Source: a virus
Taxonomy: Duplodnaviria > Heunggongvirae > Uroviricota > Caudoviricetes
IMG/VR virus record: IMGVR_UViG_2700989274_000005
Location: 1-20,931 of that record
DNA: 20,931 nucleotides
Reading direction: 5' to 3' (one strand)
Under the pieces are notes generated by a model, which was given only the letters and a program-made list of their open reading frames with translations, was not told the DNA's origin and ran no database searches. Positions 1-19,863 of this stretch are shown here, piece after piece; the stretch's first letter is position 1; the number at the start of each line of letters is the position of its first letter. The position numbers were made by a program, and so were the translations under genes.

Positions 1-1284
1 TTACTTCTTCGCCTCTGCAACCACTTTACTACCCACGCCGCGGTTATTGTATTCCCACATGCGGTTGTAGTTAGTGTCATTCAGATTGCGCTGTATTTCG
101 TCGTTATCATCTACGCTGCCGGTATTACCCGCAAACGGACGATTAGAGATCACCGCATCGGCCCACGGTTTAGCCGTGTTAAAACCTTCGTTGATGGCGC
201 TATCACGGATCACCACCTGACCGTTGGTATTGGCATCAACATCCAGCGAGCGGCCCAGTTGCGCCACACCATCACCGAAAGCATTGAAACGGCTGTTTAC
301 GGCGAGGAAACCGTAGTAAATGTTGGACAGCGTAGCCGGTGCAAACACATACGCTTCTTGCTGAGTACGTGAGTTCACCACGCGGAATTCGGTGTTATCG
401 AACACCACTGCGCCGCGACCAGAAACGATATCCACATCCCCTTCAATGTAGCTGTTGGTCACCAGCGTACGCGGCTGACGATTCGTTTCCAGACGGTTCT
501 GCACACCGCTGTTGGTGACAAAGAAGGTGTTCTGACGACCGAGAATGTTAACGTTGTTAATCTGTACCTGGTCACCATCAGTACGCAGTGCCACCGCCGG
601 ATGGTTACCTGCATCTACGCTATCGCCCAGCGTGTTTTCGATGGTCAGATTTTGCAGTTGCAGGCCATTGTTTTGTGACCAGAAGACCGCAGAGCAGAGA
701 ACACCGATACTGTCGCTGCGTTTGCTCTGGCAGCTATCGTACATATACCACGCTGGTTTACCTGGCATATATTTGCCGCGCGGGTTGACGTCGTGACGCC
801 AGTCGGCAGGGCTCATGCCACCATCAAGGGAAAGCCCAATCTTCACATCAATCGGTTTTTCACCTGTACCGTACAGAGTAATTCCACCCGGAGCGGCAGG
901 GACATATACCGTTCCCTGATACTCACCAGGCATCACGGCAATATACTGGCGCTTGTTGGTACGCTTGATAATTGCCGCATCTACCGCCGCCTGAATCGTG
1001 GTATGCGTTACACCTTGAGTGCCCGCCGGGCCGACAACAAAGTCAGGTTGCGCAGGCAGGGTAATCGGGGAAGGATTCCACGCTGCAGCACCTGGTGTCA
1101 GGGATGCAAAATAGTGTTGAGCATCGAAATTCTGCGCTTCTTTTGCCGACAGAATCGGGCGAGAAGAGGTACCAGGCGCGGTTTGATCAGAAGGACGTTG
1201 ATCGGGCGGGGTTGAGCTACAGGCGGTCAGCGTCACGCCAAAAGCCAATGCCAGCGCCAGACGGGAAACTGAAAATGTGTTCAC
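1..1284 (-). CDS. ybhC: YbhC-like outer-membrane lipoprotein (pectinesterase-family / acyl-CoA thioesterase), host chromosomal gene flanking attB
   Basis: 427-aa ORF with signal peptide and lipobox (LTAC); translation matches my recollection of E. coli YbhC; sits immediately beside the lambda att core, as ybhC does in K-12. Confidence 0.85.
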   Translation of the reverse strand: MNTFSVSRLALALAFGVTLTACSSTPPDQRPSDQTAPGTSSRPILSAKEAQNFDAQHYFASLTPGAAAWNPSPITLPAQPDFVVGPAGTQGVTHTTIQAAVDAAIIKRTNKRQYIAVMPGEYQGTVYVPAAPGGITLYGTGEKPIDVKIGLSLDGGMSPADWRHDVNPRGKYMPGKPAWYMYDSCQSKRSDSIGVLCSAVFWSQNNGLQLQNLTIENTLGDSVDAGNHPAVALRTDGDQVQINNVNILGRQNTFFVTNSGVQNRLETNRQPRTLVTNSYIEGDVDIVSGRGAVVFDNTEFRVVNSRTQQEAYVFAPATLSNIYYGFLAVNSRFNAFGDGVAQLGRSLDVDANTNGQVVIRDSAINEGFNTAKPWADAVISNRPFAGNTGSVDDNDEIQRNLNDTNYNRMWEYNNRGVGSKVVAEAKK

Positions 1285-2735: not shown

Positions 2736-2904
2736 GGTGTTCTTTCAGTTCTTCAATTCGAATATTGGTTACGTCTGCATGTGCTATCTGCGCCCACAGC
2801 ATCCAGTGGTCATAGCAGTCGCTGATGTTCTCGGCTTCGATAACTCTGTTGAATGGTTCTCCATTCTATTCACCTGTGACTCGGAAGTGCATTTATCATC
2901 TCCA

Positions 2905-2928
2905 TAAAAAAACTCGCCGTAGCGAGTT
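2905..2928 (-). terminator. Putative intrinsic terminator (minus strand), first of a tandem pair
   Basis: 7-bp inverted repeat aactcgc/gcgagtt with 4-nt loop, followed on the minus strand by a T6-7 run. Confidence 0.5.
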
Positions 2929-2931
2929 CAG

Positions 2932-2960
2932 ATAAAAGAAATCCTCGTCAGTGCGAGGAT
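2932..2960 (-). terminator. Putative intrinsic terminator (minus strand), second of a tandem pair
   Basis: 7-bp inverted repeat atcctcg/cgaggat with 6-nt loop, followed on the minus strand by a U-rich tract (uucuuuuau). Confidence 0.4.
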
Positions 2961-3132
2961 GCTGTTCATTGCTGCTATACACTTTTTTGCTCTCAACGTA
3001 AGCGGTAGCCCATTCTGTTGGGTTGGTGCAGTTGCTTTTAGGAAATGCTATTTACCCCTTAAATGTCGGCTGAAAGAGCTAAAATCCATGCAAAAAATTT
3101 ACGCAATTTTGTGTATTATTGTGCAGTAAGTA

Positions 3133-3735
3133 ATGAGCTATTTTCTGCGCAAAAAATGGATGGTAAATTTGTCCGGGTCAGGAAAAATTTTATGGGCGCT
3201 AAACATGAAAAAAGATTCGTATCCTTATTTGATTTGCATGACAGTTTCAGGGCTGATCTTTATTTTCCTTTTCTTCTGGTGGCGGGCAGATATCTACAGG
3301 GTCACGTTTCTTAATCAGAGTATATCCCACTATTACATTCTGTTTAGCATGGGAATAGCTTTTCTGTTATCTCTGTTTTGGGTTAAGAAGGGGATAGTAA
3401 AACAAAGCGGCTGGAAGAGTCTGTCAGCATACCTTAAGGTTTATGCAGGGATGTGCATATTTGCTGGATTTTTTCTGATTATACCCCTTACGACACTAAC
3501 TTATTTTTTGCCTGGAGAGACATCGTCTTACGTTGCACCGTATCGGTATACTTCCGGTAGTTCAAAAAGTTGTTCTGGAGCTGAGGTGGATGACCCCGAT
3601 CTACATGAGAATATTCGCATTTGCTATCCGTATGGCAATTATGAGTACGATAATATTATCTATGTTGAAAAGAAAATTAATATATTAGGTGCGGTAGTGA
3701 CATATGCACAGACCGCGCGTGATGATACTGAATGA
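3133..3735 (+). CDS. Hypothetical multi-pass membrane protein with cysteine-containing soluble C-terminal domain; low-GC cargo gene (start may be an internal ATG near 3205)
   Basis: 200-aa ORF in markedly AT-rich DNA; three hydrophobic segments by eye; opposite orientation to the pL-driven genes; occupies the ea8.5/ea22 position of lambda. No family recognised. Confidence 0.55.
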   Translation: MSYFLRKKWMVNLSGSGKILWALNMKKDSYPYLICMTVSGLIFIFLFFWWRADIYRVTFLNQSISHYYILFSMGIAFLLSLFWVKKGIVKQSGWKSLSAYLKVYAGMCIFAGFFLIIPLTTLTYFLPGETSSYVAPYRYTSGSSKSCSGAEVDDPDLHENIRICYPYGNYEYDNIIYVEKKINILGAVVTYAQTARDDTE

Positions 3736-3769
3736 TATAGTATATAGCGGGCAAGTTTTAGTTAATTTA

Positions 3770-3793
3770 TCGAGGTAATATAATTTACCTCGA
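3770..3793 (+). terminator. Perfect 9-bp hairpin downstream of the membrane-protein gene (possible terminator)
   Basis: tcgaggtaa-TATAAT-ttacctcga seen; followed by a moderately T-rich stretch. Confidence 0.35.
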
Positions 3794-3945
3794 CTCGTTT
3801 GTTCTGGTATTAATATTTCGCTTTACGACCGATTTTTATCTGATGATATCATGCGGTTTTCATATACTGACTTACTGTCTTTTCTCCGTTAGCGATTTTC
3901 TCCTGCTCAGCGATGATTTTATCTTTGGCTTCTAGTTAATTTCGC

Positions 3946-4167
3946 TCACTTCGAACCTCTCTGTTTACTGATAAGCTCCAGATCTTGCTGGCAACTGGCA
4001 CAAGTCCGACAACCCTGAACGGCCAGTCGTCTTCGTTCATCTATCGGATCGCCACACTCACAACAATGAGTGGCAGATATAGCCTGGTGGTTCAGGCGGC
4101 GCATTTTTATTGCTGTGTTGCGCTGTAATTCTTCAATTTCTGATGCTGAATCAATTATGTCTGCCAT
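3946..4167 (-). CDS. TraR/DksA-family C4 zinc-finger protein (lambda orf73-like)
   Basis: 73-aa ORF with a CxxC...CxxC spacing (CCECGDPIDERRRLAVQGCRTCASC) typical of TraR/DksA C-terminal zinc fingers; lambdoid b-region position. Confidence 0.6.
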   Translation of the reverse strand: MADIIDSASEIEELQRNTAIKMRRLNHQAISATHCCECGDPIDERRRLAVQGCRTCASCQQDLELISKQRGSK

Positions 4168-7428: not shown

Positions 7429-7809
7429 TCAGTCAGCCCAACCTGATTTCGAGTTTATTTGGGTTTCTGACATTGTGTATTTCTTAATCGTGTCATCGTT
7501 AAAAAGAATAGTAAGTTCTTTTTTCGTACCGTTCGTTCCATTATGGAATAATCCATAGAATGGAATAAAAGTGGTGCCATTAACTTTTACTTTTGCAAAG
7601 GCGTACTTCCAGATCTCGTTTCCACTGTCAGTATATGAAACAGCATCAGGAGAACCAAAGTAAGATTTAACCTCATTCTTGGTTGTTTTACCTTCCTGAA
7701 GTTTAGACTGGACACTAATTTCAGTTTCATTTTTGAGTTGCTGGTTGCCTGAAGAAGCACACCCAGCCAATACAGATGCCATCATGGCAGCGATTAGGAT
7801 TTTTCTCAT
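7429..7809 (-). CDS. Small lipoprotein cargo gene in the rexAB-equivalent position (between repressor gene and OL); possible SmpA/OmlA (BamE)-like fold
   Basis: 126-aa ORF MRKILIAAMMASVLAGCASS... with signal peptide and lipobox (LAGC); AT-rich; co-oriented with the repressor gene; has its own downstream terminator. Confidence 0.65.
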   Translation of the reverse strand: MRKILIAAMMASVLAGCASSGNQQLKNETEISVQSKLQEGKTTKNEVKSYFGSPDAVSYTDSGNEIWKYAFAKVKVNGTTFIPFYGLFHNGTNGTKKELTILFNDDTIKKYTMSETQINSKSGWAD

Positions 7810-8038: not shown

Positions 8039-8728
8039 TTAACCATGCTTCCTGTACGTCTGCGGCATGCTTCCAATGACCTTACCGAATATGAACACCC
8101 GGTTCATCTCGTCTTTCTCGATCGGGTCCCACGGCGAGTAGCTCTTGTTATCAGAGATAACCAGCAGCTTATCCTTCATCATTTGAAGACGTTTTACATG
8201 GGCAGTGTCGTCGTACAGAAACGCATAGATGCCATCACCGTCGAAAGATTTAACAGTGATATCAACGAACAGCAGGTCACCTGGTTCGATCGTCCCTGAC
8301 ATGCTGTCACCTCGCACGTTAATGATGCGGATATTTTCCGCCTTCCTGCCATCGAACATGTGACGAGCATCGTCAAACGAGTACTCAACCGAGCGTAGAA
8401 CTTCTACAAACTCACGGTTGATTACACCTGGCCCGGCACTGACTTCTATATCAAGAACGTCAATTTTGAAGTATTTGGAATGGCTGACAGTTGATTGTAT
8501 TGGTTGCACTGTACTGTCTGACATATTTCCAACGCCAGAAGATAACCATTCTGCGCGCACACCCAAAGCGTTCGCGATCTCCACGATTTTAGTTGTTTGG
8601 TTAGCTTTCCCTGTTTCGATTTTCTGAATAGCAGCCTGGCTAACCCCGACCAAATCCCCAAGCGCCTTTTGTGTAAGGCCTCGCGCTAATCTGGCTTCTT
8701 TAAGTCTTTCTGAGAGTGTTGTTTTCAT
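8039..8728 (-). CDS. CI-like prophage repressor (N-terminal XRE-type HTH, C-terminal S24 LexA-like autopeptidase domain)
   Basis: 229-aa ORF; HTH segment LTQKALGDLVGVSQAAIQKIETGK; C-terminal GDSM serine motif and KRL lysine motif typical of RecA-stimulated self-cleaving repressors; divergent from the cro-like gene. Confidence 0.85.
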   Translation of the reverse strand: MKTTLSERLKEARLARGLTQKALGDLVGVSQAAIQKIETGKANQTTKIVEIANALGVRAEWLSSGVGNMSDSTVQPIQSTVSHSKYFKIDVLDIEVSAGPGVINREFVEVLRSVEYSFDDARHMFDGRKAENIRIINVRGDSMSGTIEPGDLLFVDITVKSFDGDGIYAFLYDDTAHVKRLQMMKDKLLVISDNKSYSPWDPIEKDEMNRVFIFGKVIGSMPQTYRKHG

Positions 8729-12040: not shown

Positions 12041-13459
12041 TTAGAAAATAATGTTTGCTATATCCGAGATAGCATTTAAAGAACCTCTGTGGTCACTTCC
12101 TGTTTTAGGTAAAATATAGGAATATCGAGGGTCTTCATTATATGTTAACTTCCAGTGTTTTCCATCGCTTGACGCACTGAAACCTAAGTCCTTTAAATTT
12201 CTTTGTGTTGCGCTATCCATGCTTCTGTAACCTGTTAAAGTCCTTTTAAGTAATTGGCGGCGACTCTCGGTTTCTTTATTGTATTCATTATTGGCAATTA
12301 GGGATGATAAGATATGGTAGCTTCTACCAAATTCATTTTTATTTTTTATGGCAGTTTTTAGTGCGTCAATAATTATATTTTTGATTTCTCCATCAAAAAA
12401 ATCAGTCTCTTCACCAGCATTAAGCACAATGCTTCCTTGGGCTGAAGCTTGTGATTGAAGAGTGCGTACTCTGTGCTCTAAAGAGGAGATCTTATGCTTA
12501 AGATCTTCTATTTGGTCATCTTTCGCAACATTATCGGCTTCGTAAAGCGCCATCAGTTCGCGTGTGTATTCTCCTCTTTCTTTGAGTGAGTTAATAGAGT
12601 CTTTCGTTTTTCTGGTTTGTATCTCACTCCATCCACTATCTGAGACAGGAGCCATTGTAGTCGTAGCTCTTACAACATCATCAAATAACTCATCTTCAAA
12701 TTCTTTTGCGGTTTTCTCACCACGGCGATAAAAACTGATATTTTGACCCCGTGGCCAATAGATACCAACAGCACCAGCATAGGCATTTTTAGCATTTGTC
12801 TCATTTTTTAGCTTAATAGAAAATAGTCTATTGCTAGGCTCAATTAATACATGTGCTAATCCGCATACCTTTCTTGCAAGGCGTTCTGGGATGATATTGT
12901 GAGCATGTTCATTAAAAAAATACTTGGAGCTAACGTATATTATTGGTAGTCTGTTGTCAGTTTCACCATTTATAACTTTAGCTGCTATATTTAAATGTTC
13001 ATCAGTATCATCTAAGGAATGAGGTTCGACTGACACCTTGAAAATATCATCAAGACCACCAGAAAATTTATCAATCAATCTCATAACAACTAATGGTTTC
13101 TTAGGTTGCGGGGCTAGATAAGCTGCATCTTGGCTTACAACGCTAGATTCCACCTGAATCCACATGGTATCAGTTTTGAGATTTTTATTAATTGAAATAT
13201 CTGTTACCCATTTGTGTGGCTCAGATATTTTCGAATACCTAAAACAGCCTAAACTAGTATCTTTGTTTTTATAAGTTATTATATCAATTCTTTCATTTTT
13301 AGACTCTATGAAGTACTCCTCGCTTTTATAATCACATACTAATTGTGCTGGAATAAAAGTTGTATGTGGTGAGTCGTTTACCCAAGAAAAACATTCATTA
13401 AAGATCTCAGCTAGAGATGTGGAGTTTGAAACATAAAAACCAGTTGAGAAATATTTCAT
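12041..13459 (-). CDS. Orphan 472-aa protein, no recognised family; low-GC cargo gene antisense to the early-right operon
   Basis: 1.4-kb uninterrupted ORF in AT-rich DNA; AAGGA Shine-Dalgarno 7 nt before the ATG; no Walker A or HExxH seen; heptad-like charged segment around aa 300-340 (DDQIEDLKHKISSLEHRVRTLQSQ). Confidence 0.75.
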   Translation of the reverse strand: MKYFSTGFYVSNSTSLAEIFNECFSWVNDSPHTTFIPAQLVCDYKSEEYFIESKNERIDIITYKNKDTSLGCFRYSKISEPHKWVTDISINKNLKTDTMWIQVESSVVSQDAAYLAPQPKKPLVVMRLIDKFSGGLDDIFKVSVEPHSLDDTDEHLNIAAKVINGETDNRLPIIYVSSKYFFNEHAHNIIPERLARKVCGLAHVLIEPSNRLFSIKLKNETNAKNAYAGAVGIYWPRGQNISFYRRGEKTAKEFEDELFDDVVRATTTMAPVSDSGWSEIQTRKTKDSINSLKERGEYTRELMALYEADNVAKDDQIEDLKHKISSLEHRVRTLQSQASAQGSIVLNAGEETDFFDGEIKNIIIDALKTAIKNKNEFGRSYHILSSLIANNEYNKETESRRQLLKRTLTGYRSMDSATQRNLKDLGFSASSDGKHWKLTYNEDPRYSYILPKTGSDHRGSLNAISDIANIIF

Positions 13460-15224: not shown

Positions 15225-15271
15225 ATGCGTGATATTCAGATGGTTCTTGAGCGTTGGGGAGCGTGGGCGGC
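15225..15271 (+). CDS. Q-like late antiterminator, 5' fragment only (first 15 codons), truncated by the assembly gap
   Basis: ATG at 15225 encodes MRDIQMVLERWGAWA..., the N-terminus of DLP12-type Q (QuuD) as recalled; runs into the N run at 15272. Confidence 0.6.
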
Positions 15272-15281
15272 NNNNNNNNNN
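15272..15281. other. Assembly gap (10 N) joining prophage sequence to an unrelated chromosomal locus
   Basis: Run of 10 N; upstream is the prophage Q start, downstream is the interior of an autotransporter gene. Confidence 0.95.
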
Positions 15282-15282
15282 C

Positions 15283-18200
15283 ATCGTCAATAACGAAGGC
15301 GAGAGCACTATCACCAATGGCGGCACCGGCACTCAGATCAACGGTAACGACGCCACCGCGAATAACAGTGGAAAAACCACTGTTGATGGAAAAGATTCCA
15401 CGGGTACCAAAATCGCGGGCAATATCGGCATTGTAAATCTGGATGGTAGCCTGACTGTTACAGGCGGTGCGCATGGTGTTGAGAACATTGGTGACAACGG
15501 CACGGTTAACAACAAAGGAGATATTGTTGTTTCCGATACTGGATCGATTGGCGTGCTCATCAACGGTGAGGGGGCAACAGTATCCAATACGGGTGATGTT
15601 AACGTTAGCAATGAAGCGACAGGGTTCAGCATCACAACCAACAGTGGGAAGGTTTCGCTGGCAGGCAGTATGCAGGTTGGCGATTTCTCGACCGGGGTAG
15701 ATCTTAATGGCAACAATAACAGCGTGACGCTGGCGGCAAAAGATCTAAAAGTGGTCGGGCAGAAAGCGACGGGCATAAACGTTTCTGGCGATGCGAATAC
15801 AGTGAATATCACTGGTAACGTTCTGGTTGATAAGGATAAAACCGCAGACAATGCGGCGGAATATTTCTTCGATCCATCCGTGGGTATCAACGTTTACGGC
15901 AGTGATAATAACGTGACGCTGGATGGAAAGTTAACTGTTGTATCAGACAGTGAGGTTACTTCTCGTCAGAGTAATTTATTTGATGGCAGCGCAGAGAAAA
16001 CGTCAGGTCTGGTTGTGATTGGCGATGGCAATACCGTTAATATGAATGGTGGACTTGAACTGATTGGAGAGAAAAACGCGCTTGCAGATGGGTCGCAGGT
16101 TGCTTCCTTGCGCACAGGATATAGTTATACCAGCGTTATTGTCGTTAGTGGTGAGTCGTCGGTATATCTGAATGGAGATACGACAATCAGCGGAGAATTC
16201 CCTCTGGGGTTTGCCGGGGTTATTCGGGTACAGGATAAAGCTTTGCTGGAAATTGGCAGTGGCGCTACGCTAACAATGCAGGATATTGACAGTTTTGAAC
16301 ATCATGGGACAAGAACCCCAGAACTTACTTATGCTGATTCCGGTGCGAAAATTGTTAATAAAGGTACTGTTGAAATTCAGAATTTAGGTTTTGCTTTTGT
16401 TACTGGTGAAAATACAACAGGTATAAATAGTGGCACGATCTCGTTATTACAAAATGGTAAAGATCCGGCACCGTCTCCCATTGTTTTACTGGCTACTAAC
16501 GGAGGGAGCGCCACTAATGCAGGTACGATCACAGGTAAAGTGACGGAACAACATAGCGTATTTAACAAGTATTCAACGGGCACATCGAATTCATTTATTT
16601 TTAATAACGATGTCAGTAGCATAACAGGGTTAGTCGCTCAATCGAATAGCACAATTATCAATACTGACAGCGGCATCATTGATTTGTATGGTCGTGGTAG
16701 TGTCGGCATGCTTGCTATAGCAGATTCAACAGCAGAAAATCAGGGTAAAATTACACTGGATTCTATGTGGGTACATGCAAATGACACTACCGCAATGCGA
16801 GATATAGCTAGCAACAGCGCCATTGACTTCGGTACAGGTGTGGGAGTTGGTACTGATAGTTATAGTGGTGCAGGGAAAAATGCAACAGCAATTAACCAAT
16901 TGGGCGGTGTTATAACTATTTATAACGCCGGCGCAGGTATGGCGGCCTATGGCGCCAGCAATACAGTTATTAACCAGGGGACGATTAACCTCGAAAAAAA
17001 TGGTAATTATGACGATAGTCTGGCAGCAAATACTCTGGTAGGGATGGCTGTTTATGAGCATGGTACTGCTATCAACGACCAGACGGGTGTTATCAATATC
17101 AATGTTGGTACTGGTCAGGCGTTTTATAACGATGGCACAGGAACAATTGTTAACTATGGTACAATCTGCACTTTCGGCGTGTGCCAATCGGGGAATGAGT
17201 ACAATAATACAGATGATTTCACCTCACTGATCTATACCGGTGGCGATACGATTACACGAAGCGGAGAAACTGTAACGCTAAATAAATCTGCTGCTGTGAC
17301 TGATAAGCTGGCTGGGAATGTTGTTAATAGCGGAACGCTTTCCGGTGATCAAATTACGGTATCAAGCGGTCTTCTGGAAAATACCAGCGGTGGCATCATC
17401 AATAACTTAGTAAAACTTGACAAGGGTGCCGTCATTAAAAATGCCGGGGTGATGACGAATAACGTCGATGTTAGCGGTGGAATCCTCAATAATGCCGGAG
17501 AAATGACTGCGCAAATTACCATGAATGCTGGTGCTGATAGTTCGTTAGTGAACAACACCGGAACCATCAATAAAATCGTGCAGAACGCGGGGGTATTCAA
17601 TAATAGTGGCAGTGTAACAGGGCGGATGATGTCGGCTGGCGGGGTCTTTAATAATCAAACTGACGGGGCGATTATGAGAGGTGCTGCGCTGACAGGTACT
17701 GCAGTGGCAAATAACGAAGGAACCTGGAACCTCGGAAGTAGTAGTGAGGGTAACAACACCGGGATGCTGGAAGTTAATAATAATTCAGCTTTCAATAACC
17801 GCGGCGAGTTTATTCTTGATAACGACAAGAATGCTGTGCACATCAACCAGTCCGGTACGCTTTATAATACCGGTCACATGAACATCAGTAATTCTTCCCA
17901 CAACGGAGCCGTTAATATGTGGGGCGGAAATGGTCGTTTTATCAATGACGGAACGATTGATGTTTCTGCGAAGTCACTGGTAGTCAGCGCTAATAATGCC
18001 GGCGATCAGAATGCCTTCTTCTGGAACCAGGATAACGGGGTCATCAACTTCGATCACGACAGCGCCAGTGCCGTGAAAGTCACCCACAGCAACTTTATTG
18101 CCCAGAATGACGGCATCATGAACATCAGCGGCACCGGTGCTGTGGCTATGGAAGGTGATAAGAACGCGCAGCTGGTTAACAATGGCACCATCAACCTCGG

Positions 18201-19863
18201 TACCGCAGGCACTACTGACACGGGTATGATCGGTATGCAACTCGATGCCAACGCCACGGCGGATGCGGTAATCGAAAACAACGGCACCATCAATATCTTC
18301 GCCAATGACTCGTTTGCATTTAGCGTACTGGGTACAGTAGGTCATGTGGTTAACAACGGCACGGTGGTGATTGCCGATGGGGTTACGGGTTCTGGACTGA
18401 TCAAGCAGGGCGACAGCATCAATGTTGAAGGTATGAACGGTAACAACGGTAATAGCAGCGAAGTGCATTATGGCGACTATACGTTGCCGGATGTGCCGAA
18501 GCCCAATACGGTTAGTGTAACGTCGGGAAGTGATGAGGCTGGTGGCAGCATGAACAACCTCAACGGCTATGTCGTCGGTACCAACGTTAACGGCAGCGCC
18601 GGGAAGCTGAAGGTTAACAATGCCAGCATGAACGGCGTGGAGATTAACACGGGCTTTACCGCTGGTACGGCAGACACCACTGTGAGTTTTGATAACGTAG
18701 TGGAAGGTAGCAACCTGACCGACGCTGACGCCATCACCTCAACGTCCGTGGTATGGACTGCCAAAGGCAGCACCGATGCCAGCGGTAACGTTGACGTCAC
18801 CATGAGCAAAAATGCCTACACCGATGTGGCAACAGATGCCTCGGTGAATGACATCGCGAAAGCACTGGATGCGGGTTACACCAACAACGAACTGTTTACC
18901 AGCCTGAACGTCGGCACGACTGCTGAACTGAACAGTGCTCTGAAACAGGTCAGCGGTAGCCAGGCGACCACGGTATTCCGCGAAGCGCGCGTGTTAAGCA
19001 ACCGCTTTAGTATGCTGGCAGATGCCGCGCCGAAAGTGGGTAACGGTCTGGCGTTCAACGTTGTCGCGAAAGGCGATCCGCGTGCCGAGTTAGGTAATAA
19101 TACCGAATACGACATGCTGGCATTGCGTAAAACTATCGACCTGAGCGAAAGCCAGACGATGAGTCTGGAGTACGGTATCGCTCGTCTCGATGGTGATGGT
19201 GCGCAGAAAGCGGGTGATAATGGCGTTACAGGCGGTTATAGCCAGTTTTTTGGCCTGAAACATCAGATGTCGTTCGATAACGGCATGAACTGGAATAACG
19301 CCTTGCGTTACGACGTTCACAACCTTGACAGCAGCCGCTCGATTGCATTTGGCAACACGAACAAAACGGCTGATACCGACGTGAAACAGCAGTACCTGGA
19401 GTTCCGCAGCGAAGGGGCGAAGACTTTCGAACCGAGCGAAGGACTGAAGGTTACGCCATATGCGGGTGTAAAACTGCGTCACACACTGGAAGGTGGCTAT
19501 CAGGAGCGCAATGCCGGAGACTTTAACCTGAATATGAACAGTGGCAGCGAAACGGCGGTGGACAGCATCGTCGGGCTGAAACTGGACTACGCAGGTAAAG
19601 ACGGCTGGAGCGCTAGCGCTACGCTGGAAGGCGGGCCGAACCTGAGCTACGCGAAGAGCCAGCGTACGGCAAGCCTGGCAGGCGCAGGCAGTCAGCACTT
19701 TAACGTCGATGACGGTCAGAAGGGCGGCGGCATCAATAGCCTGACAAGCGTCGGCGTGAAGTACAGCAGCAAAGAAAGTTCGCTGAATCTGGATGCGTAC
19801 AACTGGAAAGAGGATGGCATCAGCGATAAAGGCGTGATGCTGAACTTTAAGAAAACGTTCTAA
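15283..19863 (+). CDS. ydbA: YdbA-like autotransporter (beta-helical passenger plus C-terminal beta-barrel translocator), 5'-truncated at the gap
   Basis: About 1526 in-frame codons after the gap; Gly/Asn/Thr/Val-rich repetitive passenger; C-terminal about 280 aa with alternating barrel-like pattern ending in a terminal Phe (...LNFKKTF); followed by ydbC as in K-12. Confidence 0.8.
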   Translation: MVNNEGESTITNGGTGTQINGNDATANNSGKTTVDGKDSTGTKIAGNIGIVNLDGSLTVTGGAHGVENIGDNGTVNNKGDIVVSDTGSIGVLINGEGATVSNTGDVNVSNEATGFSITTNSGKVSLAGSMQVGDFSTGVDLNGNNNSVTLAAKDLKVVGQKATGINVSGDANTVNITGNVLVDKDKTADNAAEYFFDPSVGINVYGSDNNVTLDGKLTVVSDSEVTSRQSNLFDGSAEKTSGLVVIGDGNTVNMNGGLELIGEKNALADGSQVASLRTGYSYTSVIVVSGESSVYLNGDTTISGEFPLGFAGVIRVQDKALLEIGSGATLTMQDIDSFEHHGTRTPELTYADSGAKIVNKGTVEIQNLGFAFVTGENTTGINSGTISLLQNGKDPAPSPIVLLATNGGSATNAGTITGKVTEQHSVFNKYSTGTSNSFIFNNDVSSITGLVAQSNSTIINTDSGIIDLYGRGSVGMLAIADSTAENQGKITLDSMWVHANDTTAMRDIASNSAIDFGTGVGVGTDSYSGAGKNATAINQLGGVITIYNAGAGMAAYGASNTVINQGTINLEKNGNYDDSLAANTLVGMAVYEHGTAINDQTGVININVGTGQAFYNDGTGTIVNYGTICTFGVCQSGNEYNNTDDFTSLIYTGGDTITRSGETVTLNKSAAVTDKLAGNVVNSGTLSGDQITVSSGLLENTSGGIINNLVKLDKGAVIKNAGVMTNNVDVSGGILNNAGEMTAQITMNAGADSSLVNNTGTINKIVQNAGVFNNSGSVTGRMMSAGGVFNNQTDGAIMRGAALTGTAVANNEGTWNLGSSSEGNNTGMLEVNNNSAFNNRGEFILDNDKNAVHINQSGTLYNTGHMNISNSSHNGAVNMWGGNGRFINDGTIDVSAKSLVVSANNAGDQNAFFWNQDNGVINFDHDSASAVKVTHSNFIAQNDGIMNISGTGAVAMEGDKNAQLVNNGTINLGTAGTTDTGMIGMQLDANATADAVIENNGTINIFANDSFAFSVLGTVGHVVNNGTVVIADGVTGSGLIKQGDSINVEGMNGNNGNSSEVHYGDYTLPDVPKPNTVSVTSGSDEAGGSMNNLNGYVVGTNVNGSAGKLKVNNASMNGVEINTGFTAGTADTTVSFDNVVEGSNLTDADAITSTSVVWTAKGSTDASGNVDVTMSKNAYTDVATDASVNDIAKALDAGYTNNELFTSLNVGTTAELNSALKQVSGSQATTVFREARVLSNRFSMLADAAPKVGNGLAFNVVAKGDPRAELGNNTEYDMLALRKTIDLSESQTMSLEYGIARLDGDGAQKAGDNGVTGGYSQFFGLKHQMSFDNGMNWNNALRYDVHNLDSSRSIAFGNTNKTADTDVKQQYLEFRSEGAKTFEPSEGLKVTPYAGVKLRHTLEGGYQERNAGDFNLNMNSGSETAVDSIVGLKLDYAGKDGWSASATLEGGPNLSYAKSQRTASLAGAGSQHFNVDDGQKGGGINSLTSVGVKYSSKESSLNLDAYNWKEDGISDKGVMLNFKKTF

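Follow-up and report, generated by a model that had tools for sequence, protein, structure and literature searches.

What does a small membrane protein do when its gene stands in the early region of a lambdoid prophage, on the strand opposite to the early operon and in the place where phage lambda keeps ea8.5 and ea22? This question is raised by positions 2900-3945 of a 20,931-nucleotide stretch of DNA from a virus of the Caudoviricetes (IMG/VR record IMGVR_UViG_2700989274_000005, positions 1-20,931), the whole of which is referred to here as the window. A first-pass annotation, made from the sequence, had suggested that the gene is a moron, expressed from its own promoter in the lysogen and possibly involved in superinfection exclusion or another membrane-level function. 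The comparisons reported below support well the view that the gene belongs to an autonomous accessory cassette (moron) of 434-type lambdoid prophages, carried in place of ea8.5 and ea22. As to its role, we favour expression in the lysogen and protection of the cell at the envelope, most likely through interference with the entry of incoming genomes, and we assign this reading a probability of about 0.4.

An Accessory Gene in Place of ea8.5 and ea22

When the window was aligned with lambda, the two sequences were nearly identical up to position ~2962 and the match resumed at ~3932; between these breakpoints lambda carries ea8.5 and ea22, whereas the window holds 969 unrelated bases (2963-3931; guanine-plus-cytosine (GC) content 0.38), a segment delimited by alignment and composition. 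This confirmed the replacement of ea8.5/ea22 that the first-pass annotation had proposed. The segment is missing from lambda and most lambdoid phages; in Lambda, HK630, DE3 and others, both flanks match and ea8.5/ea22 take the place of the cassette. The low GC content noticed earlier also held on measurement, with 0.386 for 2900-3945 as compared with 0.47 for the whole window, 0.46 for the int-xis flank and 0.51 for the TraR-to-gam flank. The membrane gene is on the plus strand, whereas int, xis, the TraR-like gene, exo and bet are on the minus strand, so that it points against the pL operon. Lambda ea8.5 and ea22 occupy the same slot as the cassette, between the t-L4-type terminators and orf73/TraR; however, they are members of the pL operon on the opposite strand, and their soluble products are unrelated to the window protein.

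A 200-amino-acid (aa) open reading frame (ORF) opposite to the pL-driven genes had been described at this locus. The ORF (3133-3735, plus strand) and its orientation are as claimed, but its length is not that of the conserved coding sequence, which comprises only 176 aa from 3205 (3205-3735, plus strand), as judged from homologue starts, upstream stops and the ratio of nonsynonymous to synonymous substitution rates (dN/dS). The mechanically called ORF adds 24 non-conserved N-terminal codons. All homologues that are not near-identical to the window copy begin with MKK or MKN, corresponding to residue 25 of the longer ORF, and the upstream 24 codons of the copies borne by P2-like phages contain in-frame stops, for which reason a start at 3133 was rejected. 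The dN/dS values against the P2-borne copies were 0.08-0.16, and the reading frame was intact in 63 of the 64 closely related copies, establishing a real gene, with its start at 3205, under purifying selection. The E. coli P2-borne copy is annotated in RefSeq as a frameshifted pseudogene.

The non-conserved N-terminal extension of the 200-aa ORF and a weak ribosome-binding site in the window copy would suit an ORF that arose by chance in AT-rich filler and has no functional product. Against this stand the low dN/dS, the nearly uniform intactness of the frame, confident structure models, and homologues conserved down to 33% identity across genera. The conservation data effectively refute this explanation, and we regard its probability as negligible.

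Predicted Architecture and Topology of the Protein

Hydropathy analysis and AlphaFold2 placed three helices at residues 5-29, 38-61 and 70-101 of the 176-aa form, and the transmembrane stretches themselves were set at residues ~7-27, 40-60 and 76-101 (3223-3507, plus strand). The full AlphaFold2 model, with a predicted local distance difference test score (pLDDT) of 85, showed these three helices followed by five beta strands, and the C-terminal 78 residues modelled alone reached a pLDDT of 90. The earlier description of three hydrophobic helices followed by a Cys-containing soluble tail was thereby borne out, the tail being a beta domain of ~70 aa. This domain (3508-3717, plus strand), a predicted periplasmic five-stranded beta-barrel, is the most conserved part of the protein and includes the invariant Cys123 (3571-3573) and Cys140 (3622-3624), which lie within the motifs CSGA and IRIC, respectively. 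Across 31 diverse members of the family, the only invariant positions are these two cysteines and one glycine. The first periplasmic loop (loop 1) is short and conserved; the model shows a short strand there.

The net charge was about +1.3 for the N-terminus and about +2.7 for the lysine-rich loop 2, as compared to about +0.4 for loop 1. Since net positive charge is concentrated in the N-terminus and in loop 2, which joins helices 2 and 3, rather than in loop 1, the topology analysis called for by the first-pass annotation predicts a cytoplasmic N-terminus and a periplasmic C-terminal domain. The model thus points to an integral inner-membrane protein of the N-in/C-out type. The conserved cysteine pair would fit a putative periplasmic disulfide, and the suggestion of a membrane-level function agrees with the predicted topology and with conservation focused in the periplasmic parts. 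A lipoprotein reading was also considered and rejected, since the sequence YLIC is off the lipobox consensus and its Cys is not conserved.

Occurrence in Lambdoid Phages, P2-like Phages and Chromosomes

The interval 2900-3945 is shared with phages mEp332 (99.5% identity), 2B8 (98.6%) and 434 (98.5%). With presence defined as at least 80% of the interval, it was found in 905 of 5426 complete E. coli genomes (~17%). CPT_434_36 of phage 434 (OL657226, "putative membrane protein") and RefSeq WP_000120065.1 (hypothetical protein) are the same gene; the phage 434 copy stands in the same slot, between t-L4 and the TraR-like gene, in the same orientation, and nothing material differs. A record of 1991 (M60848) already shows the 5' end of the gene as "ORF-22+". 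The annotated length varies with the start codon chosen (188, 200 or 176 aa), and no record gives a function. A common conserved lambdoid gene of known function, the alternative that the first-pass annotation had set against its own proposal, therefore describes the gene in part: it is common, as its presence in phage 434 and in about one-sixth of the E. coli genomes attests, but it is annotated everywhere without a function.

The genomic context of the copies varied with their similarity to the window copy. Near-identical copies (97-100%) always have the TraR-like gene, exo and bet as neighbours, in lambdoid prophages with several different integrases. Copies of 47-80% identity occur in P2-like prophages of E. 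coli and Salmonella, between the portal gene gpQ and the replication gene gpA (homologous loci L008-L014, L095-L100 and L102-L110 in our numbering), and the closer P2-borne relatives at this gpA-gpQ locus are 71-80% identical; the window copy itself lies between xis and exo, outside that locus. Anti-phage systems, old, tin and SieB among them, are concentrated at the cos-proximal gpA-gpQ locus, which in P2 itself holds old and tin (Rousset et al. 2022, PMC9122126). Table S5B of the same study lists, as system #4, a single protein without a Pfam domain, described as "3 TM", with 470 occurrences. We found that the system #4 protein is 52% identical to the window protein over 168 residues (1-168; BLASTP, E 5e-57) and has the same layout of three helices and a CSGA/IxIC domain; the two differ in location, the window copy being in the lambdoid exo-xis region and system #4 in the P2 hotspot. 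The gene is thus neither rare nor new as a sequence, having already been listed, without a name, among the cassettes of the P2 hotspot ("3 TM"). The sequence of system #4 is given only in the Table S5 file, and the system is missing from the table of tested systems in PMC9122126. These placements establish that the gene is mobile and that its relatives reside in the hotspot. They also show it as cargo of two unrelated families of temperate phage, carried by preference at their accessory sites.

Traces of this exchange remain beside the gene. An ea22-family remnant (3849-3949, minus strand) consists of a GTG start with the residues MSEIN (3932-3949), a stop, and an out-of-frame fragment of the C-terminal coiled coil; its start overlaps the stop of the TraR-like gene. 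The E. coli P2-borne copies have an intact 127-aa Ead/Ea22 gene at the same position, convergent with the membrane gene (L095, 6622-7005), from which it follows that the membrane gene and ea22 were exchanged together between lambdoid and P2-like phages. Judging from the sequences, the ea22 allele later decayed by internal deletion in the 434-type lineage. The moron reading is well supported by these comparisons, as the segment is missing from lambda, low in GC and directed against pL, and the gene has moved into the P2-like gpA-gpQ hotspot and several chromosomal sites together with ~120 bp of DNA upstream of its start codon, a stretch conserved in the P2-borne copies as well as in the window.

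Other genes were seen next to the P2-borne copies. In E. coli P2-like loci L095 (7069-8344) and L111 (6170-7445), a ParM/StbA and Plasmid_stab_B partition pair stands beside the Ea22-like and membrane genes; this pair is the most frequent content of the hotspot, with 4592 occurrences (Table S5B, PMC9122126). In Salmonella P2-like loci L008 (5284-5888) and L012 (5227-5831), ORFs of 81 and 119 aa precede the membrane gene, the latter with a DFDGV motif and a sub-threshold LNS2 (HAD-like) match (E 0.034). Other copies lack these two ORFs, so neither is a required partner. The contexts have no conserved neighbour in common, and the protein therefore works on its own, with no partner dedicated to it.

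More distant copies (33-56% identity) stand alone in chromosomes, with no phage genes nearby. Enterobacter has the order LysR-gene-GGDEF, which is syntenic in at least seven species, and other solitary chromosomal sites were found in Klebsiella, Citrobacter, Cedecea and Pseudescherichia. These copies bear on the strongest rival of the exclusion hypothesis, namely that the protein is a lysogenic-conversion or fitness factor of the envelope unrelated to phage, acquired from Enterobacteriaceae chromosomes, which gives protection from bacteriocins or contact-dependent toxins as an orphan immunity protein, or tolerance of envelope stress. Such a role is favoured by the vertically inherited Enterobacter copies, by the confinement of the family to the Enterobacteriaceae, and by the combination of a membrane anchor with a conserved periplasmic domain that has invariant cysteines. 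Membrane-anchored immunity proteins, e.g., the colicin M immunity protein, have a similar layout. However, there was no adjacent toxin gene in any context examined and no sequence or fold match to immunity proteins, and the most numerous and most diverse copies are phage-borne, in a locus enriched for anti-phage systems. On balance, we consider a fitness role of this kind unlikely, and prefer protection against incoming phages.

Searches for Characterized Relatives

The 176-aa protein had no match in Pfam or NCBIfam. In PHROGs, only the C-terminal domain was matched, by family 1416, which carries an annotation without function. An exhaustive profile search of 1.84 billion representatives recovered only 61 clusters, with the same architecture wherever sequences were inspected, and the source names of the protein clusters recovered were "hypothetical", "membrane protein" or "transmembrane protein" throughout. 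Both genome and protein searches confined the family to the Enterobacteriaceae. A structure search of BFVD gave no hit at E <= 0.001, and a sequence-profile search of the PDB gave nothing. The remote homology search suggested at first pass was therefore productive in yielding homologues, but not in yielding a characterized relative. In the literature on 434, mEp332, the exo-xis region and the 434 genome record, we found nothing on the membrane gene.

Two further comparisons concern the beta domain and the overall layout. A protein of 3074 aa (P0124) matched the family profile weakly eight times within positions 122-158, the stretch from CSGA to IRIC (E 3e-6), which could reflect a repeat of a related beta-hairpin unit, or chance. 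Proteins of the NfeD/YuaF type, which we take to combine three helices with a C-terminal OB-fold at a similar total size, share the gross layout of the window protein; an NfeD-like reading was unsupported by the family and structure searches.

Candidate Signals for Transcription

Within the conserved upstream DNA, a candidate sigma-70 promoter of the extended -10 type was located at 3141-3169 (plus strand), composed of TTTTCT (3141-3146), a 17-nucleotide (nt) spacer ending in TGG, and TAAATT (3164-3169). The element TGnTAA (3161-3166, within TGGTAAATT) and the upstream TTTT (17 nt) are kept in the copies borne by phages and also in those on Citrobacter and Cedecea chromosomes. We read this as a candidate extended -10 promoter with a weak -35, which would start transcription at ~3176. 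A generic promoter scan did not flag the site.

Just upstream, three direct repeats, TTACGCA, TTGTGTA and TTGTGCA (3099-3125, plus strand), follow one another in an exact 10-bp phase, and may form a putative regulator binding site. The P2-borne cassettes retain two or three TTGTGCA-like repeats, some of them degenerate, and the chromosomal copies do not. In the phage 434 record, TTGT-N6-TTGT, formed by two of the repeats, is labelled as matching the CII consensus. The survival of the repeats in P2-like phages would favour a host regulator, or a general one, over CII; a CII-activated promoter, which would also have poor spacing to a usable -10, was judged unlikely to explain the conservation.

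The CII-like sequence bears on a further explanation, in which the gene serves the development of its carrier phage, as a substitute for Ea8.5/Ea22 in the lysis-lysogeny decision or as a modulator of lysis or injection. Genes of the exo-xis region influence lysogenisation and induction (PMC7093339, PMC3824215), and the position of the gene in the exo-xis slot, with the TTGT-N6-TTGT element upstream, counts in favour of such a role. On the other hand, the gene and the early operon lie on opposite strands; the gene is also found in P2-like phages, which are unrelated, and in phage-free chromosomes; its product has no similarity to Ea8.5 or Ea22; and the neighbouring ea22 allele has decayed. We therefore regard a developmental role as very unlikely.

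Downstream of the gene, the perfect 9-bp hairpin reported at 3770-3793 was found again by hairpin scan and folding. It has a folding z-score of -2.9 on the plus strand and is followed by the T-rich tail CTCGTTTGTT, so that the whole (3770-3803, plus strand) is a candidate cassette terminator. The E. coli P2-borne copy has a similar, imperfect counterpart, and on the sequence the hairpin is a plausible terminator of the cassette. On the left, two tandem hairpins resembling intrinsic terminators lie on the minus strand at 2941-2960 and 2910-2929, with a T run after each. Together they fold at -22.8 kcal/mol (z-score -4.2), and none of 200 shuffled sequences was equally stable. The t-L4 terminator annotated in the phage 434 record M60848 maps to the 2941-2960 hairpin. 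Because the left hairpins align with lambda, they are backbone terminators for leftward transcription and lie outside the insert. The tandem minus-strand terminators that had been described as flanking the cargo gene (2905-2960) thus exist, but both are common to lambda and do not belong to the insert. An Rfam search found no RNA families.

A Possible Role in Superinfection Exclusion

In the mechanism that we propose, the gene would probably be transcribed from its own extended -10 promoter (~3141-3169), convergent to the pL operon, and the transcript would probably end at the 3770-3793 hairpin. The 176-aa product would insert in the inner membrane with its N-terminus inside, displaying a small, probably disulfide-bonded beta-barrel and the conserved loop 1 on the periplasmic face. 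Acting alone, the protein would most likely protect the lysogen at the envelope, by blocking genome entry of superinfecting phages so that the cell survives (superinfection exclusion).

SieA of phage P22 offers a comparison for this mode of action, since inner-membrane exclusion of the SieA type is what we propose for the window protein. Like the window gene, sieA encodes a small prophage inner-membrane protein as a separate unit against the neighbouring gene flow, and it has its own annotated promoter. The SieA sequence, unlike the window protein, shows a single hydrophobic segment at its N-terminal end, two more at its C-terminal end, and no beta domain. HK97 gp15 and T4 Imm, which we liken by description only, are presumably likewise small prophage-encoded inner-membrane exclusion proteins. 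A second comparison is with Rst Hydrolase-3TM (Rousset et al. 2022; plasmid pFR97), a system of a phage-satellite hotspot which includes a three-helix protein with two cysteines near its C-terminus. That system needs a 290-aa HAD hydrolase as partner, whereas 2900-3945 of the window holds no hydrolase gene.

Several results weigh against an exclusion function. In a comparison by hhalign, P22 SieA and the window family gave a probability of 0.2%, and this value, together with the different architecture, led us to reject kinship with SieA. Identity with the 3TM component of Rst Hydrolase-3TM was rejected on the same hhalign probability of 0.2%. A search of PADLOC-DB 2.0.0 returned 0 families at E <= 1, and the structure searches gave only generic small-barrel or helix matches. 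The synteny of the gene in Enterobacter, without a prophage, argues for a function useful to the cell. The hotspot also holds non-defence cargo (ParM/StbB, DinI and Ea22), and the window copy has a weak Shine-Dalgarno sequence.

Transmembrane proteins of known defence systems are believed to be suicide effectors (Rousset et al., PMC9122126), and the occurrence of the gene in the hotspot raises the question of whether this protein is one of them. As an abortive-infection effector, its helices would form a pore or depolarise the membrane once the periplasmic domain senses infection, and the cell would be killed before phage release. However, known transmembrane effectors work together with a second protein that senses or signals, whereas this gene stands alone; there is no sensor partner and no cytoplasmic domain, the cytoplasmic loop is short, and a copy has become fixed in Enterobacter chromosomes without sign of toxicity. 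Abortive infection appears quite unlikely to us, and we retain superinfection exclusion as the preferred account.

We tentatively suggest, as a broader and more doubtful proposition, that the gene founds a new single-protein, periplasm-facing family of superinfection exclusion or defence. Its members would combine three helices with a disulfide-locked OB-like barrel and would have been exchanged between the lambdoid exo-xis region and the P2 gpA-gpQ locus; the family would be present in about one-sixth of complete E. coli genomes and in phage 434, with a relative fixed in Enterobacter chromosomes.

Prophage Setting and Other Genes

The window opens with ybhC (1-1284, minus strand), followed on the same strand by a lambda-type integrase gene (1419-2489) and an excisionase gene (2467-2685; Pfam Exc, E 4e-41). 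The right neighbour of the cassette is a TraR/DksA zinc-finger gene (TraR-like orf73; 3946-4167, minus strand), and rightward of it lie a DUF1382/orf63 gene, exo, bet and gam. The presence of ybhC and lambda-type int/xis on the left, and of the TraR-like gene, orf63, exo, bet and gam on the right, indicates a lambdoid prophage at the lambda attachment site, and the same gene order places the cassette within the exo-xis region. The first-pass annotation had located it between xis and the ORFs of the b region; this was correct on the xis side, but the genes on the right are TraR-like orf73, orf63 and orf60a of the exo-xis region.

An ORF of 56 aa on the plus strand (2959-3129), called a "putative membrane protein" in one phage 434 record, is probably not a gene, and was rejected as one because it has no family match and its DNA is confined to 434-type phages; the part left of ~3085 is not common to the P2-borne copies. 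Further left, the homologue of a 55-aa ORF (lambdap35 of lambda, ORF55 of phage 434; 2725-2892, minus strand) carries a change of codon 9 from TGG to TAG, which was seen in 3 of the 51 copies examined, the window included.

Three other genes of the window deserve mention. A second low-GC patch (7429-7809, minus strand) encodes a 126-aa lipoprotein with a signal peptide, a LAGC lipobox and a weak BamE-like Pfam match (E 1.6e-4); the gene lies directly left of a cI-like repressor gene (8039-8728) and resembles another moron-type insert. A 472-aa ORF placed after the replication genes (12041-13459, minus strand) has no Pfam domain and matches the PADLOC candidate defence family HEC-07 (E 1e-9). 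Directly after a rusA-like gene, a 1544-aa autotransporter with a BigA beta-sandwich and an autotransporter beta-domain is encoded at 15229-19863 (plus strand), with a masked run (XXXX in the translation) close to its start. The autotransporter stands where late genes are expected, suggesting that the prophage is truncated or remodelled.

Significance

The gene is among the commonest cargo genes of E. coli temperate phages without an assigned function, with its lambdoid form in 905 of 5426 genomes and, with 470 occurrences, the fourth most frequent cassette of the P2 hotspot. One of its carriers, phage 434, is a textbook model and directly manipulable. If the protein did not block entry, the gene would be a reminder that defence hotspots hold substantial non-defence cargo. 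If it does block entry, the few proteins that prevent injection would be joined by one with a new fold, and the pattern of resistance to phages among many clinical lysogens of E. coli, Shigella and Salmonella would be accounted for in part.

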